From Dehalococcoidia bacterium (GTDB lineage: Bacteria > Chloroflexota > Dehalococcoidia > UBA2979), in the NCBI GenBank assembly GCA_965219085.1, contig OZ244720.1, positions 451,684 to 515,683 on the forward strand: a stretch of DNA of 64,000 nucleotides, written 5' to 3'. Both the position numbers and the translations under genes were made by a program. Positions 6,003-63,998 of this stretch are shown one piece after another; the stretch's first letter is position 1, and every line of letters starts with the position of its first letter. The notes under the pieces were generated by a model. That model had not been told where the DNA came from. It did not search any database and saw only the letters and a program-made list of their open reading frames with translations.

Positions 6003-6644
6003 CTAGTCGCCGCCCTCGTCCTCCATGCGGCGTCTGCGGTCGTCCAGCGACTCACCCCTGTAGTGCCAGTACAACGGGCCCGCAGCACTCCACTTGTCAG
6101 TCCACGTGATTCCGTGTCGTTGCATGATTTCGGTGGCAGCAGCGGAGAGCGAGGTCTCCTCACCCTCGAAGGTGATCCTGTTGTGCGAAGCCACCGTGGC
6201 GCTGAAGGGCTCCCCGTCGTTGGAGATCTCCCGGTACTGGAATTGTAGTTCGGCTCCGGCCTCGATGCCGACCATGTCGAAGTTGAACCGCTCGCGCTTC
6301 TTGCGGGCCTTGTTCAACGCGAGCCGTGCCTCCTCGTCCTCGACCACATCGGAACCCGGAGTGACGTCGCGACCGCGCGTGAGGCGTAGCGCGGCCTCCA
6401 CGCGGTCGGCACTGACCTCGAAGAACTCACGGTTGCTGCGGACGCGGCGATCGCCGAACACATCATGAAGCAGTCGCTCGGTCTCCGCGGCGTCGTCGAC
6501 TTCCATCGCCACGACGCACTCGAACGGCACCGGAACGCTCGTGGTGTCGAGAGAGCGCAGCCGCTGCTCGATGTTGGTCGTCCGCCCGATCTTCACGAGG
6601 TCGGGCATCGCCGGGTTGGTGAGGCAGTAGACGATCCCGGTCAT
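6003..6644 (-). CDS. GIY-YIG nuclease family protein (T5orf172-type) with C-terminal extra domain
   Basis: Real start MTGIVYCLTNPAMPDLVKIGRT at 6644 (ATG); upstream 123 codons of the ORF are low-complexity artefact. Confidence 0.75.
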   Translation of the reverse strand: MTGIVYCLTNPAMPDLVKIGRTTNIEQRLRSLDTTSVPVPFECVVAMEVDDAAETERLLHDVFGDRRVRSNREFFEVSADRVEAALRLTRGRDVTPGSDVVEDEEARLALNKARKKRERFNFDMVGIEAGAELQFQYREISNDGEPFSATVASHNRITFEGEETSLSAAATEIMQRHGITWTDKWSAAGPLYWHYRGESLDDRRRRMEDEGGD

Positions 6645-6697
6645 GGCGGTGTCCCCCGTGCCAACTGCTGTTGGCGCGTGATGGTACGCGGCGGGGG

Positions 6698-9229
6698 TCA
6701 ATGTGCCTCGGCGACGATGCCCGCCTCGGCGCGCTCGACGAGGGCCCGCAGCGTGTCGAGGTCGGCGGCGGCAAGCTCGGGGTCGGCGTCGAGCATCGTC
6801 TCCGCCTCGCGCCGCGTCGCTTCGATGAGGCGGCCGTCGAGCAGCGAGGCCACGCGCAGCGAGGGGATGCCGGACTGGCGCGTGCCGAACAGCTCGCCCG
6901 GCCCGCGCAGCTCGAGGTCGGCCTGGGCGAGATCGAAGCCGTTCGACGTGCGGGCGACGAGCGACAGGCGCTCCTCGGCCTCCGGCGAGGGGTCGTCGGC
7001 GAGCAGGAAGCACGTCGAGGGATGTTCGCCGCGCCCGACGCGGCCGCGGAACTGGTGCATCTGGGAGAGCCCGAAGCGGTCCGCGCCCTCGATCACCATC
7101 ACCGTCGCGTTTGGCACGTCGATGCCGACCTCGACGACGGCGGTCGAGACGAGTACGGCCACCTCGCCCGAGGCGAAGCGCTGCATGACGGCGTCCTTGT
7201 CGCGGCCGGACATCCGGCCGTGCAGCAGCGCGATGCGGTCCGCCAGCTCCGGGAACTGCTCGCCGCGCAGCCGCTCGTACTCCTCGGTCGCGGCGCGCGA
7301 GATGACGGCGTCCGAGCCCTCGACGAGTGGGCAGATCACGAACGCCTGCCGCCCCGCGGCCACCTCGGCGCGCACGTGCTCGAAGGCGGCGGGGCGCTCG
7401 ATGGGCGTGAGCCAGCGCGTCTCGATAGGCGTGCGGCCCGGTGGCATCTCGTCGATCGTGGAGATGTCGAGGTCGCCGTAGAGCGTGAGCGCGAGCGAGC
7501 GCGGGATCGGCGTCGCGGTCATGACGAGCAGGTGCGGCGTCGGTTTGCGGGGCGCTTCGAGGGCCTCGACCTGCTCCTCCTCGTCCGGGACGCCGCGCAG
7601 GGCTGCGCGCTGCATGACGCCGAAGCGGTGCTGCTCGTCGACGACGGCGAGGCCGAGCCGCTCGAAGTCGACGCCCTGCTGGATCAGCGCGTGCGTGCCG
7701 ACGGCGATCTGGGCGCCGCCGTGGCGGATCGCGTCGAGGGCCGCGCGGCGCTCCTTCGCGCGCTTCGAGCCGGTGAGCAGCACCACCTGGAGCGGGTGTT
7801 CGAGGAAGGGCAGCGCGACGACCCCGTTGAGCGGTGGCTCGGGTTCGCCCGACAGCAGCTTGCAGACGGTGCGGAAGTGCTGCTCCGCGAGCACCTCGGT
7901 CGGCGCCATGAGCACGGCCTGGTGACCGGCGGCGACGGCGGCGAGCATCGCCGCGAGCGCGACGACGGTCTTGCCCGATCCGACATCGCCCTGCAGCAGC
8001 CGGCCCATTGGCTGCGAGCGCCCGAGGTCAGCGAGCACATCGTCGAGGGTGCGCCGCTGGGCGGCGGTGAGCGCGAACGGTAGCGTCTCGAGGAACGCCC
8101 CGGCGGTGGCGCGGCCCTCGAAGACCGGCGCGTCACCGTGCTGCTCCCGCTCTCGCTTGCGCCGCACGACGCTGAGTTGCACGGCGAGCAGCTCGTCGAA
8201 GGCGAGGCGCTGGCGGGCCTGCGCGAGCTGCGCCTGGTCGTCCGGGTAATGGATCTGGCGCGTCGCCTCGACGATGCCGGGCAGGCGCCGACGCTCGCGC
8301 AGCTCGGCGGGCAGGGGTTCGCGCATGCGGTCGGCGAAGCGTTCGAGGAGGTCGGCGATCGCCTCGCGCAGCGCGCGCTGCGGGAGGCCCTGCGTGAGGT
8401 GGTACACAGGCACGAGGCGGCCGGTGTGGCGGAGGTCGTCAGTGATGCGCTCGTACGCCGGGTTGTCGAACGTCGGACGCCCGCGGTAGGCGCGCACGCC
8501 GCCGGCGACGGCGATCTCGGTGCCCGGTGGCAGTTGCTTCGCGAGGTATGGCTGGTTGAACCACACGACGCGAATGCGGGCGCCGCTCGCGTCGCTGATC
8601 GTCGCCTCGGTCGCCTGCATGCGGCCGCCGCGACCCATGCGAATAGCGCGAGCGCGGTCGATGGTGCCCCGGATCGTCTGCTCGTGGCCGATGCGCAGTT
8701 GCGAGATGGGCACGGTCTTCGAGAAGTCGTGGTGCCGGTACGGGTAGTGCCGCAGCGCGTCGGCGATGGTGACGACGCCGAGCTTCTCGAGGCGCGTGAG
8801 GTGCGCCCGACCGAGCTTGGTCCCCGCCTGCGCAACCGGCAGCTCGAGCGCCTCGGGGCCTGGCGGGATGGCGACGGTCGGGGGGCGCCGAGGAGCCCTC
8901 GATGCGCCGCGCCTCGGTGCGGCCTGCTTGCGGGCGGAGGCGCGACGCGGGCTCCTGGGGCCGCGGCCCTTGCCCGCTCCCTCGGCCAGGGCGTGAGCGA
9001 CGGTGGCGCGCGCGCGGCGCAGCCAGGCACGACGCTCCTCGGCGTCGAGCGAGCGATAGCCGGTCGCGGGGAGCGCCCCGACCATGCGCAGCAGGGGCGA
9101 GTTGGGCGGCTCGTCGCGGGCTTGCAGCCGCAGCATCTCGTCCAGCCCGCCCTCGACGAGCGCGTCGGTGCAGCCGGCCTCCAGTTCCCGCTCGAGGACC
9201 ATGCCGAGCATATCGAGGTCTACGGTCAC
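6698..9229 (-). CDS. recG: ATP-dependent DNA helicase RecG
   Basis: Wedge domain, helicase motifs (GSGKT, DEQHRFGV, TATPIPRS), C-terminal TRG motif; GTG start overlaps degV stop (GTGA). Confidence 0.9.
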   Translation of the reverse strand: MTVDLDMLGMVLERELEAGCTDALVEGGLDEMLRLQARDEPPNSPLLRMVGALPATGYRSLDAEERRAWLRRARATVAHALAEGAGKGRGPRSPRRASARKQAAPRRGASRAPRRPPTVAIPPGPEALELPVAQAGTKLGRAHLTRLEKLGVVTIADALRHYPYRHHDFSKTVPISQLRIGHEQTIRGTIDRARAIRMGRGGRMQATEATISDASGARIRVVWFNQPYLAKQLPPGTEIAVAGGVRAYRGRPTFDNPAYERITDDLRHTGRLVPVYHLTQGLPQRALREAIADLLERFADRMREPLPAELRERRRLPGIVEATRQIHYPDDQAQLAQARQRLAFDELLAVQLSVVRRKREREQHGDAPVFEGRATAGAFLETLPFALTAAQRRTLDDVLADLGRSQPMGRLLQGDVGSGKTVVALAAMLAAVAAGHQAVLMAPTEVLAEQHFRTVCKLLSGEPEPPLNGVVALPFLEHPLQVVLLTGSKRAKERRAALDAIRHGGAQIAVGTHALIQQGVDFERLGLAVVDEQHRFGVMQRAALRGVPDEEEQVEALEAPRKPTPHLLVMTATPIPRSLALTLYGDLDISTIDEMPPGRTPIETRWLTPIERPAAFEHVRAEVAAGRQAFVICPLVEGSDAVISRAATEEYERLRGEQFPELADRIALLHGRMSGRDKDAVMQRFASGEVAVLVSTAVVEVGIDVPNATVMVIEGADRFGLSQMHQFRGRVGRGEHPSTCFLLADDPSPEAEERLSLVARTSNGFDLAQADLELRGPGELFGTRQSGIPSLRVASLLDGRLIEATRREAETMLDADPELAAADLDTLRALVERAEAGIVAEAH

Positions 9230-32506: not shown

Positions 32507-32629
32507 GGCGGAGTCTAGGGGAAATCGAGCAGGCGGTGGCGGCCGGGGTCACATCCCCCGCGCCCGACGATGCGAGATACCCTCGACACGCGGCGGTCGA
32601 GGCGTCACGGGAGAGCGGGAGCGAGCGAT

Positions 32630-34585
<1,956 letters not shown>

Positions 34586-34598
34586 GAAGCCGGATGCG

Positions 34599-34625
34599 GT
34601 CTGCGGGGGCATTGCCCCCGCAGAC
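34599..34625. terminator. rho-independent terminator of peptidase gene
   Basis: GTCTGCGGGGG cattg CCCCCGCAGAC 11-bp stem 14 nt after stop, followed by U-rich CGAUCUAUCAUGGGUUGUAUU. Confidence 0.55.
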
Positions 34626-34654
34626 GATCTATCATGGGTTGTATTAGCGTGAGC

Positions 34655-34774
34655 TTAGTCCAGCGTAGTGATGTTCACTATCGTGATGTCCACTGTAGTG
34701 TTGATAACGACTGAAACCCGCAATAGTAGTGCAGCTAAGACAGCGCCACAAAGTAATCGAGCAGTTGTGTACAT
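34655..34774 (-). CDS. 39-aa small ORF (hydrophobic N-terminus, Ile/Thr/Val-rich C-terminus) in low-GC pocket
   Basis: AGAAAGGAGG (full anti-SD complement) 6 nt before ATG at 34774; MYTTARLLCGAVLAALLLRVSVVINTTVDITIVNITTLD; rare codons. Confidence 0.4.
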   Translation of the reverse strand: MYTTARLLCGAVLAALLLRVSVVINTTVDITIVNITTLD

Positions 34775-35011
34775 TGTGTTCCTCCTTTCTGGCGTCGGCG
34801 GGCGTCTGGCTCGACGCCCGGTGCTGATGCAGCGTCGAGGGCGACGGGTCGGACCCACGCCAAGTTCCGACCACGGACATGATACTACGGCGGCGAGACA
34901 GGGGTCATCGGAAGCCGTGACTAAGAGCGCGGGAAGCCGCACCGCGTCGGTTATCTCTGGCCACGCGCGCGGCGACCGGGCCGTACTGGGACAGCGCGCT
35001 AGGATTCGTAT

Positions 35012-36361
35012 ATGAGCCGCTCGTCTGCCGGCCCGGCCGCCGAAGAGCCACCACCCGTGCCGCCCACCGCGAGGCGGCGAGGCGTGTTCTGGGGCTGGTG
35101 GCTCGTCATCGGCGCGACCGTCGGGCAGTTCGTGGCCCTGGGCTCCTCCGGCGGGATTGCCGGCGTCTTCCTGCGCCCGATGACCGAGGACCTCGGCTGG
35201 ACCGCCGCCGAGTACACCCTCGGCGGCTCGGCCGCGTTCCTGCTCGGGGGCGCCATCGGCGTCGTGGTCGGGCAACTCGTCGACCGCTACGGCGCGCGGC
35301 CGCTGATGCTGGTTGGCGCGTTCGTCTATGTCGGCTCGTTCCTCGCCATGGCGCGCGTCGAGGTGCTGTGGCAGTTCGTCGTGCTCTCGATGCTGTCAGG
35401 GGGCGCGGGCTACACGCTGGTCGGGCCGCTCGTCGTCAACGCGGCGCTCGCGAAGTGGTTCGTCGTGCGGCGCGGCTGGGCGATCGCGCTGGGCTCCTCG
35501 GGCATCTCGCTCGCGGGGCTGATCATGCCTGTCACGATGACGCGTGTCGTCGACTCGATCGGGTGGCGCGACGCCTACGTGATCCTCGCCGTGTTCGTGT
35601 TCGCGATCCTGGCGCCGGTCGCGCTCGTCATGCGGAGGCAGCCCGAGGACTACGGGCTGCTGCCGGACGGGCTCGACCCCGACGCCGAGGCAGGCGTCGA
35701 TGCCGAGGCGGTCGAGGCGCAGGAGCGCGACGCCGCCAACTCCTACACGCGCGGCGAGGCGCTGCGCACGCCCGCGATCTGGCTGCTCATCGCCGGCTTC
35801 GGGCTGAACATCATGGCGCTGACGGCGATCCTCGTACACGCCATCCCGTTCCTCACCGACCACGGGTTCACGCGCACCGAGGCCGCGCTGGCGATCGCCG
35901 TCAACGGGGGCGCCAACCTCGGCTCGAAGTTCGTGTGGGGCTACTTCCTGCAGCGCGTCAACGTCCGCTACCTGGGTGCGACGGCGCTGTCGATCTCGGC
36001 GATGGGGGTGGTGCTCATGCTGGTTTCGGGGGAGGCGGGCGCGCTGCCGCTGATGTTCTTCGCGTTTTTCTGCTGGGGCTTCGGCTTCGGCGGCACGATA
36101 CCGGTGAGCGAGTTCATCTGGGCGAAGTACTTCGGGCGCGTGCACATCGGGGCGGTGCGAGGGGTAGGCGTGCCGTTCACCATCGTGTTTGGGGCGCTGG
36201 GCCCGATCCTCGCGGGCCTCTACTTCGACGCAGCCGGGTCGTACGGGGGCGTGTTCGCGTTCTTCGTCGCTGCATACCTCACGGGTGCGCTGGCGATTCT
36301 CGCCTCGCGCGAGCCACCGCCGAAGCCGGTCCCGGCAGTGGCTACGGGTGACGCCGCCTAG
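35012..36361 (+). CDS. MFS transporter (oxalate/formate antiporter-like family)
   Basis: 12-TM MFS sequence; true start possibly further downstream. Confidence 0.8.
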   Translation: MSRSSAGPAAEEPPPVPPTARRRGVFWGWWLVIGATVGQFVALGSSGGIAGVFLRPMTEDLGWTAAEYTLGGSAAFLLGGAIGVVVGQLVDRYGARPLMLVGAFVYVGSFLAMARVEVLWQFVVLSMLSGGAGYTLVGPLVVNAALAKWFVVRRGWAIALGSSGISLAGLIMPVTMTRVVDSIGWRDAYVILAVFVFAILAPVALVMRRQPEDYGLLPDGLDPDAEAGVDAEAVEAQERDAANSYTRGEALRTPAIWLLIAGFGLNIMALTAILVHAIPFLTDHGFTRTEAALAIAVNGGANLGSKFVWGYFLQRVNVRYLGATALSISAMGVVLMLVSGEAGALPLMFFAFFCWGFGFGGTIPVSEFIWAKYFGRVHIGAVRGVGVPFTIVFGALGPILAGLYFDAAGSYGGVFAFFVAAYLTGALAILASREPPPKPVPAVATGDAA

Positions 36362-37151
36362 CGCGACAGCACCTCGTCGAAGAACGCGTCGACGCGCGCG
36401 TTGAACACCTCGGGCATCTCCCAGTACAGCGAGTGGCCAGCCTCCGGCACACGCTCGATGCGCGAGCCGCGCACGCGCTGCTGCGCCGCGGCCGTGACCT
36501 CGATCGGTATGACCCCGTCCTCCTCGCCGGCGAGGAACAGTACCGGCGCCTCGAGCCGCGCGAGGTCCCCGACGGGGATCGCGCCGTCCTCGATCGAGTA
36601 CGTGCTGGGCAGGTTGAGCGGGGGGTTGCCGAGCGTACCTGCTGGTAGAGGAAGACGCCCTCGGGGTGCTCGTCCTTGAAGCGCTGCCCGACCATCGTGG
36701 TCTGCTCGGCGGCCGGCCCGGCCGGATCGATCTGGCTGAGGCCCTCCCAGTGCTTGCGCGCCCGCGCAACGAGGTCCTCGTCGCCGACGCCGAGGAAGGT
36801 GTTGGCCATGACCAGTGCCCACACGCGCTCCGGGTGCGTGCCGGCAAAGGTCATGCCCGTGAACCCGCCCATCGATTGCGCCACGATCGCCGTCGACGCG
36901 ATGCCGAGGTGGTCGAGGAGTTCCTCGAGGTCGCGGCGGTACGCGCGCATGGTCTCGCCGGAGTGGTCGAGGCTCTGGCCGAAGCCGCGGTGGTCGATCG
37001 TGATGCAGCGGTAGCGACGCGAGAAGTGCGGGACCTGCTGCCACCAGCTCATGTGGTTCCCGCCCGCGCCGTGCGCGAAGACGATGGCGCGATCGCCATC
37101 GCCACCATCCTCGTAGTACAGCTCGCCGCCGGTCACCGGGAGCATGGGCAT
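36358..37151 (-). pseudogene. alpha/beta hydrolase, frameshifted near 36620 (next to a G6 run)
   Basis: N-terminal 165 aa (HGAGGNHMSW, AQSMGGF) in one frame, C-terminal ...LGNPPLNLPSTYSIEDG...EAGHSLYWEMPEVFNARVDAFFDEVLSR in the +2 frame; junction next to CCCCCC run. Confidence 0.5.
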
Positions 37152-53255: not shown

Positions 53256-53906
53256 CTACTCGCCGTTGAGCTTCGGAACCTTGAGCTGCTCCATCACGCG
53301 CTCGAAGACCTCGTACTCCTGTGCGCCGACGACGGCGTAGCGCTCGTTCAGGATGAACGTCGGCACGCCCGTCACGCCGATCGACTGCGCCCAGGTGATG
53401 CCGTTGTCGACCTGCTGGCGGTAGCGCCCGGTCTCGAGGGCGTCGCGCAGGTCATCGGCATCGAGGCCCGTCTCGTTGCCGATCTGCAGCAGGGTGTCGA
53501 GGTCGCCGAGGTTGCCGTCCTCCTCGAAGTGGGTGCGGAACAGTGCGCGGTGTAGCTCATCGCCGTCGTGGCCGTGTTCCTGCGCGTACTCGGCGGTCTC
53601 GAGCGAGAGGTGCGAGTTCGGCGTGTAGGTGCGGCCGCGCTTGAAGGTGATGCCGGCCTGCTGGCCGCGCAGTTCGAGCGCGGATGGGGGGTCACCGGGC
53701 TTGGTGTAGGGCTCGCGGCTGCGACCCTCGGGCGGGATCGACGGGTCGAGCAGGAAGGGCGCCCAGCGCACGTCCATGTCGTACTCCTGCCGCAGCTTCT
53801 CGACCTCCACGAGGCCGACATAACACCACGGTCAGATGAAGTCGGAGACGATGATGAGCGAGGTGCGGTGCTCCTCGGCGTCGGTGTTGAGTTCGTCGGT
53901 GGTCAT
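53256..53906 (-). CDS. DsbA/FrnE-like thiol:disulfide oxidoreductase, selenocysteine-containing (U-P-W-C)
   Basis: ATG at 53906 with GGGAGGG RBS; MTTDELNTDAEEHRTSLIIVSDFI-U-PWCYVGLVE...: TGA (53832-53834) sits exactly at first Cys of the CPWCYIG DsbA motif; ORF track reports only from 53810. Confidence 0.7.
53801..53817 (-). promoter_or_regulatory. candidate bacterial SECIS hairpin for DsbA-like UGA
   Basis: CGGCCUC gug GAGGUCG 7-bp stem (one G-U) with GUG loop, 14 nt after UGA. Confidence 0.3.
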
Positions 53907-63653: not shown

Positions 63654-63998
63654 ATGACTGCATTCAACGACGCGACTGCGACAAAGGGCGACCTCCGAGA
63701 ACTGGAGGCGCGGCTGGAGTCGCAGACGAAGACCGGCCTCCGGGAACTGGAGGCGCGGTTGGACTCGCAGACAAAGGCGGACCTCCGCGAACTGGAGGTC
63801 CGCCTCGAGTCTCAGACCAGGGCGGACCTCCGCGACTCGGAGGCACGCCTTGAGTCTCATTTCCGGGACATGTTCGCGACGAAGGCCGATCTCTTCCAGA
63901 TGGAGACTCGCATTACGCGCTGGGTGGTGGGTGCGGTCATGGGAAGCATCGGCGCTGCTACGGCGATTGCCTTCGCGCTTGCCCGCTTCGTCTCCTGA
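63654..63998 (+). CDS. coiled-coil repeat protein with C-terminal TM anchor (DUF1640-like)
   Basis: Four 14-aa repeats DLRELEARLESQTK from 42-bp tandem DNA repeats; hydrophobic C-terminus. Confidence 0.55.
   Translation: MTAFNDATATKGDLRELEARLESQTKTGLRELEARLDSQTKADLRELEVRLESQTRADLRDSEARLESHFRDMFATKADLFQMETRITRWVVGAVMGSIGAATAIAFALARFVS

Follow-up and report, generated by a model that had tools for sequence, protein, structure and literature searches.

We found that the most AT-rich segment of a 64,000-nucleotide (64-kb) stretch of DNA from a Dehalococcoidia bacterium, hereafter the window, encloses a 39-codon small open reading frame (smORF) preceded by a perfect 10-nt Shine-Dalgarno (SD) sequence. 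We tentatively interpret this unit as a lineage-specific orphan mini-gene for a small hydrophobic membrane peptide, either foreign or new, and assign this reading a probability of roughly 0.45. The smORF is convergent with a peptidase gene and divergent from an MFS transporter gene. The features of the locus are listed below, with coordinates given as positions in the window.

32570-34585, plus strand: S9 prolyl-oligopeptidase-family peptidase gene (profile families)
34599..34625, no strand: perfect 13-bp GC-rich palindromic hairpin GTCTGCGGGGGCA/TGCCCCCGCAGAC (inverted repeat I1)
34601..35011, no strand: genome-private peptidase-MFS spacer of 411 nt (blastn and alignments A1 and A2 against relatives)
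34606..34635, plus strand: weak promoter-like site GGGGCA-18-TATCAT, 8/12 match, with its -35 box inside the 13-bp hairpin (lenient scan)
34627..34790, no strand: AT-rich compositional island, comprising the SD, the ORF and the 3' UTR (maximal-scoring segment, GC profiles)
34774..34655, minus strand: 39-codon smORF plus TAA, product MYTTARLLCGAVLAALLLRVSVVINTTVDITIVNITTLD (ORF reading; ATG at 34774..34772, TAA at 34657..34655)
34708..34658, minus strand: 15-nt unit repeated three times in tandem and in frame (71-76% identity), encoding the tail VINTT/VDITI/VNITT (direct-repeat family D1, spacing 15 and 15)
34790..34781, minus strand: SD AGAAAGGAGG, the longest in the window, with the 6-nt spacer AACACA to the ATG, an optimal distance
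34799-34806 / 34813-34820, minus strand: 8-bp hairpin CGGGCGTC-N6-GACGCCCG in the putative 5' UTR, with 8 nt separating it from the SD (inverted repeat I14)
34908..34879, minus strand: sigma-70-like promoter candidate ATGACC-18-TATCAT, 9/12 match, which would give a 5' UTR of ~98 nt (promoter scan)
35012-36361, plus strand: MFS transporter gene (profile families)

An AT-rich island in the peptidase-MFS spacer

The maximal AT-rich segment of the 64-kb window spans positions 34627-34790 (164 nt, 44.5% GC versus 70.3% for the window) and scores 22.8, against 8.1 for the next best segment. The 120-nt GC minimum of the entire 64 kb also falls at the smORF locus, where GC content drops to 44%, >5 standard deviations below the mean (70.3%, sd 4.8). 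The low-GC pocket that a first-pass annotation of this DNA had described between the peptidase and MFS genes is thus both real and extreme. The perfect 13-bp hairpin forms one edge of the island and the first base of the SD 10-mer the other, although the coincidence of this second edge with the SD is good to ~10 nt only, because the SD is itself AT-leaning. On the other side of the ORF, AT-rich DNA extends 29 nt past the stop codon.

The island shows no similarity to sequencing adapters in a weak test. A replication origin or iteron array was also considered and set aside, there being no Rep or DnaA context. The motif TATCATG flanks the island in inverted orientation (34629-34635 on the plus strand, and 34879-34885; inverted repeat I2), and each copy resembles a -10 box pointing inward, so that the two are convergent. 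Chance alone would place an inverted repeat of 7 nt within 300 nt, and this pair is only suggestive.

Initiation site and flanking elements

The SD 10-mer occurs exactly once in the window, compared with 0.04 occurrences expected from shuffles, and the pattern AAGGAGG-N4-8-ATG is also found once, compared with 0.11 expected. Other genes in the window carry AGGAGG or GAAAGGAG at 5-8 nt, and none has an SD as long as that of the smORF. The SD before the NMO gene is GAAAGGAG, which suggests that the anti-SD of the organism may extend into ...CUCCUUUC; the 16S gene is outside the window. The position first reported for the SD, 6 nt upstream of the ATG of a 39-codon minus-strand ORF, was confirmed, and the SD exceeds chance. 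The strong ribosome binding first ascribed to the smORF is a prediction from sequence. Its unpaired probability in the modelled mRNA is ~0.5.

Upstream of the SD, ATGACC-18-TATCAT is the sole promoter-like site within 34300-35300, with 0.1 expected per shuffle. The 8-bp hairpin that had been noted upstream of the ribosome-binding site exists at that place but is ordinary: the window holds 49 perfect hairpins of at least 8 bp, and the putative 5' UTR folds no better than shuffled sequences (z=-0.59). Perfect stems of 11 bp or more number just three in the 64 kb, the 13-bp hairpin among them; it follows the peptidase stop codon by 13 nt and that of the smORF by 29 nt. It lacks a U-tract, and a terminator scan that looks for such tracts did not call it; it is likely the shared tail-to-tail terminator of the peptidase gene and the smORF. 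The plus-strand site GGGGCA-18-TATCAT is not significant alone and, if active, would produce an RNA antisense to the smORF and running toward the MFS gene.

Coding signal and codon usage

At the local composition, chance alone leaves a frame open for 39 codons or more with P=0.156, so the length of the smORF is unremarkable. The island is open in two other frames as well (78 aa on the minus strand and 115 aa on the plus strand). Both were rejected as candidates: they have no SD and no Pfam match and are not in the protein collection searched below.

Two properties of the smORF point to coding. Its base composition varies with codon position (chi-square p=0.007, and p=0.047 when only the 23 non-repeat codons are counted), and its 18-residue hydropathy maximum (KD18) is 2.57. 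We compared the latter with random ORFs generated from the dinucleotide statistics of the island itself. None of ~3,100 random ORFs reached this value (mean 0.43, sd 0.58), which lies 3.7 sd above. Judging from these comparisons, it is unlikely that the initiation site and the hydrophobic reading frame are accidental.

The codon usage of the smORF departs strongly from that of the other genes. Its CAI-like value is 0.12, versus 0.48-0.84 for whole genes of the window, and the lowest value among 1,056 native 39-codon windows is 0.44. GC3 is 49%, versus >90% in nearly all window genes, and differs within the smORF from ~30% in the first 23 codons to ~75% in the repeat-derived tail. More than half of its codons (20 of 39) each make up <5% of their synonymous family in window genes. 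TTA, used twice in the smORF, amounts to 0.1% of their Leu codons, and the richness in rare codons claimed in the first pass therefore stands. Such usage predicts poor elongation, or a frame that may never have adapted to translation in this host. In high-GC Streptomyces, there are genes whose expression depends on TTA codons (bldA-type). The likeness is one of analogy only: here too the genome is GC-rich and TTA is almost unused, and a TTA-containing ORF could be gated by a rare tRNA. In contrast to the bldA case, about half of the smORF codons are rare, rather than one regulatory codon, and no tRNA gene lies in the window (a scan for tRNA and tmRNA genes found neither).

Two other small ORFs were observed elsewhere in the window. 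A 79-codon ORF at 63759-63998 (plus strand) stands behind GGAGG-5-TTG and encodes heptad-like repeats (ADLRELEVRLESQTRADLRDSEARLES) and a C-terminal hydrophobic helix; its 5' end overlaps a hairpin at 63775-63805 that is one of the three strongest in the window. A 24-codon ORF at 53832-53906 (minus strand; MTTDELNTDAEEHRTSLIIVSDFI) stands behind GGAGG-8-ATG and has a native-like GC3 of 0.96. Neither has a Pfam match.

A non-coding reading of the island

The island could instead be non-coding AT-rich DNA, such as a regulatory or promoter region, a site bound by a nucleoid protein, or the template of a long MFS leader or other plus-strand RNA, in which case the arrangement of SD, ATG and ORF would be coincidental. 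Low-GC pockets in the relatives (~47.5% GC; L005 6639-6760 and L016 2727-2850) look like ordinary promoters (TTGTCA..., TTGACA...) of the gene that follows and set a baseline for such pockets in this clade. The MFS gene has no other promoter-like site, and any plus-strand transcript reaching it must cross the island. The three 15-nt-spaced repeats, which contain an AGTGA-N3-TCACT palindrome, would also suit such a role. However, the island is about twice as long as the promoter pockets of the relatives and much deeper, and there is no strong plus-strand promoter. A search of the window against Rfam 15 gave 0 matches at the gathering score and, in 34400-35200, only chance-level matches with E>1 (up to E=10). 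A structured small RNA was rejected on either strand (z = 0.05 and -1.2 with the terminator excluded), the z of about -3 for a longer stretch coming from the 13-bp hairpin. These two results, the lack of an Rfam match and of excess structure on either strand, favour the mini-gene, and a non-coding island leaves the SD, the codon periodicity and the hydrophobic frame unexplained. We consider this reading improbable.

Features of the predicted peptide

In the predicted product, a short N-terminus that includes Arg6 leads into a hydrophobic core (residues 7-24), and the tail is polar, with Thr, Asn and Asp. Within the core, 12 of the 15 residues of LLCGAVLAALLLRVS (residues 7-21) are hydrophobic. 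The C-terminal tail, NTTVDITIVNITTLD, is polar (Thr/Asn), with 3 Asp and without an aromatic or basic cluster. Thr, Ile and Val account for 15 of the last 21 residues, largely from one 5-residue unit present three times; the corresponding 15-nt tandem repeat scores below the TRF threshold. Together with the KD18 value, these counts bear out the transmembrane-like N-terminus and the Ile/Thr/Val-rich tail of the earlier description. A single-sequence AlphaFold model, in itself weak evidence, predicts one helix over residues 3-38 (pLDDT 87). The tryptic peptide of the product would be LLCGAVLAALLLR.

The n- and h-regions resemble those of a signal peptide (MYTTAR, a positive n-region, followed by the hydrophobic LLCGAVLAALLL). 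Inspection of the sequence revealed no AXA-type (small-X-small) cleavage site after the h-region and no lipobox ([LVI][ASTVI][GAS]C), which RLLC at residues 6-9 does not fit. The product matches TIGR03726 weakly and below the cutoff (E=0.043; 13.6 versus 20.85 bits).

A relic leader peptide had been among the first-pass candidates, and we considered a relic or active attenuation leader of the Thr/Ile/Val type, for which the Thr/Ile/Val content of the tail and the hairpin after the ORF speak. The smORF resembles thrL and ilvL in being a short ORF with a strong ribosome-binding site, a run of Thr/Ile/Val codons and a hairpin behind it, but it is longer, has a hydrophobic N-terminal half and lacks a downstream operon, a U-tract terminator and alternative hairpins. 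The Thr/Ile/Val richness is largely the threefold repetition of a single unit, and the hairpin stands 29 nt past the stop codon and was not called as a terminator. We found no convincing antiterminator, and neither the MFE fold nor the centroid fold contains a helix that would compete. The minus strand beyond the hairpin is only the antisense of the peptidase gene. We reject the leader-peptide reading because no gene lies downstream on the minus strand, and give it almost no chance.

Searches for homologues

We searched for homologues of the smORF peptide at several levels. A word-indexed search of 5.8 billion protein clusters found none, and HMMER over 1.84 billion representatives found no true homologue; its single match (E=2e-5) was a protein with FN3 repeats whose score was summed over 7 repeats, and was discarded as spurious. 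Scans of viral and metagenome contigs with a doubled smORF-peptide query returned nothing, and there was no match in Pfam, NCBIfam, PHROGs, PADLOC or the PDB. In a search by blastn for a phage or plasmid origin of the island, no match was significant (37-nt matches under TnpB genes had E = 0.4). The search for the peptide in other genomes that the first-pass annotation had proposed thus yielded no homologue in any database, contig or close relative examined.

No exact copy of the smORF product, or of the other ORFs overlapping the island, is present in a collection of 15 billion protein sequences. The same collection contains the neighbouring MFS protein of this genome (P0002), and the smORF was therefore apparently not called as a gene. 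P0002 (425 aa) begins 24 codons downstream of the ATG at 35012, at position 35084; alignment with relatives (446-447 aa, with a conserved ATG) favours 35012 as the true start. Exact-protein look-up of the MFS protein (from the start assigned here and in the 425-aa P0002 version), the peptidase and the NMO found no conspecific contigs, and a conserved DNA pattern of the peptidase 3' end found nothing in JGI metagenomes. A second copy of the smORF locus was found neither in the window nor in 84 related loci.

Comparison with relatives

The relatives of the peptidase are sponge-type Dehalococcoidia/Chloroflexota MAGs. The gene order NMO-peptidase-MFS is conserved in them, and the peptidase-MFS junction is highly variable. 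Homology by blastn to ten relatives ends at 34576-34600 and resumes at 35012-35082 in the nine that still carry the MFS gene. The whole spacer (34601-35011), island included, is absent from all ten close relatives examined. In L003 and L004 the junction measures ~40 nt, with no intervening gene. Seven relatives, including the four nearest, carry at the junction a GerE/CarboxypepD_reg gene of 2.1-2.4 kb, partly decaying. The L001 junction encodes a 788-aa GerE(LuxR)-HTH protein (6067-8433), and L002 and L005 have inserts of equal size. A search with the MFS protein recovered closer relatives (89-92% identity), whose contigs L081-L084 all have the GerE/CarboxypepD_reg gene. It is intact (684 aa) in L082 (1851-3905) and L084 (1850-3904), 5'-truncated after a 920-nt uncalled gap in L081 (1599-3938), and split into 249 + 198 aa plus a 450-nt gap in L083 (2204-4000). 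The 411-nt spacer contains no remnant of this gene at the protein or DNA level.

On these alignments, the peptidase-MFS junction is a variable hot-spot, and the island is private to this genome and stands in place of an accessory gene that is decaying in sister lineages, because the 411 nt match nothing in the loci of the relatives. The first-pass annotation had named, as evidence against the smORF, a lack of ORF conservation with only the SD-like string conserved. This comparison is uninformative here, because conservation of the ORF is zero but the SD is unconserved as well, the whole locus being private to the genome.

Several other changes were observed around the junction. L006 is rearranged there, and at 6055-6135 its MFS frame is broken after ~20 codons by a hairpin and T-run (CCCACCCCC...GGGGGGTGGG CGTGTTTTTTGATTT). 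In the window, an alpha/beta-hydrolase gene at 36373-37151 (minus strand) is frameshifted, with the break near 36606-36627; the L081 orthologue aligns with frame -3 over its residues 1-182 and with frame -2 over residues 176-260. The frameshift marks either a pseudogene or an indel error. In L083, this gene is a 63-aa remnant. A RiPP-like cluster involving the S9 peptidase was considered and rejected: relatives that lack the smORF keep the peptidase and MFS genes in synteny, and the lasso-isopeptidase score is 169 bits versus a cutoff of 400.

The variability of the junction bears on the possibility that the smORF is a dead relic, the 5' stub (ribosome-binding site and signal-peptide-like N-terminus) of a gene from a lower-GC donor, left by insertion and deletion at a rearrangement hot-spot and either unexpressed or inconsequential. 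The site ranges from direct adjacency of peptidase and MFS genes (L003, L004) through an intact 684-788 aa gene (L001, L002, L005, L082, L084) and a decaying one (L081, L083) to rearrangement (L006), and the frameshift in the neighbouring alpha/beta-hydrolase gene would indicate that gene decay is ongoing in this genome. The foreign codon usage, the signal-peptide-like N-terminus and the AT-rich DNA beyond the stop codon are also what a stub would show. Signal peptides rarely keep detectable homology. Against a relic, the SD is still perfect, and no signal-peptidase (AXA) site or lipobox follows the hydrophobic core on inspection of the sequence. Moreover, a random foreign fragment would not be expected to start at an SD and end at a terminator, yet a GC-rich promoter-like site, a 5' UTR and a terminator are correctly arranged around the AT-rich block. 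It is mainly the neatness of these GC-rich control elements around the AT-rich translated block that separates a mini-gene from a dead stub. We regard the stub as the main rival to the mini-gene, though an unlikely one.

Comparison with type I toxins and other small membrane proteins

The first-pass annotation had listed a type-I-like membrane toxin among its candidates. A type I toxin-antitoxin-like module, in which a membrane toxin is checked by a cis-antisense RNA, would be a special case of the mini-gene reading. Type I toxins (Fst/Ldr, TisB, ZorO, TxpA, BsrG) share with the smORF product a length below 70 aa, one predicted hydrophobic helix and, less clearly, a polar C-terminal tail, and with the smORF itself the organization as a stand-alone intergenic unit with a strong SD. 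Fozo et al. 2010 applied as criteria a length of 16-70 aa and a 15-residue stretch with 10 or more hydrophobic residues (I, V, L, F, C, M, A) (PMC2887945), and the 39-aa intergenic smORF, with its 12 of 15 hydrophobic residues at positions 7-21, agrees with these generic features (PMC2887945); its polar tail, having no aromatic or basic cluster, fits less clearly. The smORF locus is absent from close relatives, much as the zorO locus is missing from E. coli MG1655 (PMC2887945).

Candidate sources of an antisense RNA are read-through from the peptidase gene, a transcript from the TATCAT promoter at 34606-34635 and the MFS leader. The smORF and the peptidase gene would be transcribed convergently across a hairpin without a U-tract, inverted TATCATG boxes flank the island, and rare codons behind a strong SD would suit tightly gated expression. 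However, searches of Pfam, NCBIfam, PADLOC and PHROGs and with HMMER returned no homology to any toxin family, and the locus is a single copy with no tandem copy. Tandem or multiple copies are frequent, but not obligatory, in type I toxin loci. The antisense promoter is weak (8/12, with its -35 box in the hairpin), and the modelled mRNA leaves the SD unsequestered and shows no unusual degree of structure. The C-terminus is acidic, without the aromatic or basic cluster typical of known toxins. The generic peptide features of the proposed toxin thus stand, whereas homology, tandem copies and a strong antisense promoter are missing, and we judge this special case distinctly improbable. A literature search found no paper pairing type I systems with Chloroflexi, and no described type I system in Chloroflexota.

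A more elaborate form of this idea follows from the geometry of the locus: any plus-strand transcript to the MFS gene, whether from read-through of the hairpin or from a start at TATCAT, crosses the island antisense to the smORF mRNA, and antisense expression over the smORF would result. The unit could then be a newly acquired, self-contained, antisense-gated small-toxin or 'excludon-like' module, in which the smORF mRNA and the plus-strand transcript reaching the MFS gene repress each other, and a near-total use of rare codons, TTA included, behind the strongest SD in the window gates translation. We consider such a module a distant prospect.

AcrZ, KdpF, MgtS and CydX are small membrane proteins that modulate larger membrane proteins. 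The smORF product resembles them in size and in its single hydrophobic helix, and the smORF adjoins a transporter gene, that of the divergent MFS protein. It shows no homology to them, and a partnership with the MFS protein finds no support in co-inheritance, since all relatives conserve the MFS gene but lack the smORF. ORFan and de novo small genes in hot-spot intergenic regions offer another comparison. Like the smORF, they are lineage-private, atypical in composition and located at sites of variable accessory content, but such candidates mostly lack an initiation site as strong as that of the smORF.

Proposed origin and significance

For the orphan mini-gene that we favour, we propose the following organization, from which we infer transcription, translation, membrane insertion of the product and any function. 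The minus-strand sigma-70-like promoter at 34908..34879 would yield a transcript with a GC-rich 5' UTR of ~98 nt. The AT-rich block would then supply the perfect 10-nt SD, the 6-nt spacer, the ATG and the 39 codons, followed by a 29-nt 3' UTR and the 13-bp GC hairpin, which the peptidase gene would share from the opposite side, tail to tail. The mini-gene would encode a membrane peptide with a single helix and a polar tail derived from the 5-residue repeat. The unit would have arrived with, or arisen inside, the 411-nt private spacer, replacing the accessory gene of the four nearest relatives.

Composition and codon usage appear to mark the unit as recently foreign or newly born rather than an old resident. 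The horizontally acquired small protein suggested in the first pass fits the data best (SD, periodicity, hydrophobic stretch, foreign codons, absence in relatives), with the qualification that these features agree alike with transfer and with de novo origin. Against the mini-gene stand the lack of a homologue in any of the searches, the absence of the island from ten relatives, the CAI-like value of 0.12 and a promoter that matches at only 9/12 positions. Readings outside those discussed here are together a slim possibility. Most plausibly, the product would be membrane-active or modulatory.

Small hydrophobic orphan ORFs are already familiar from variable intergenic regions, and the smORF is a well-formed new candidate from an uncultivated phylum, set apart by an unusually sharp signature in its composition. 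A dead stub would do no more than mark a hot-spot of rearrangement. An antisense-gated toxin module would be the first type-I-like system on record for Chloroflexota, captured as it took the place of a decaying accessory gene. If the smORF is translated, no concept would change, but an uncultivated, sponge-associated lineage of Chloroflexota would provide a clean case of a small membrane protein that is private to the lineage and escaped annotation, and of a complete mini-gene appearing where an accessory gene is being lost, useful to studies of small-protein discovery and of gene birth or transfer.
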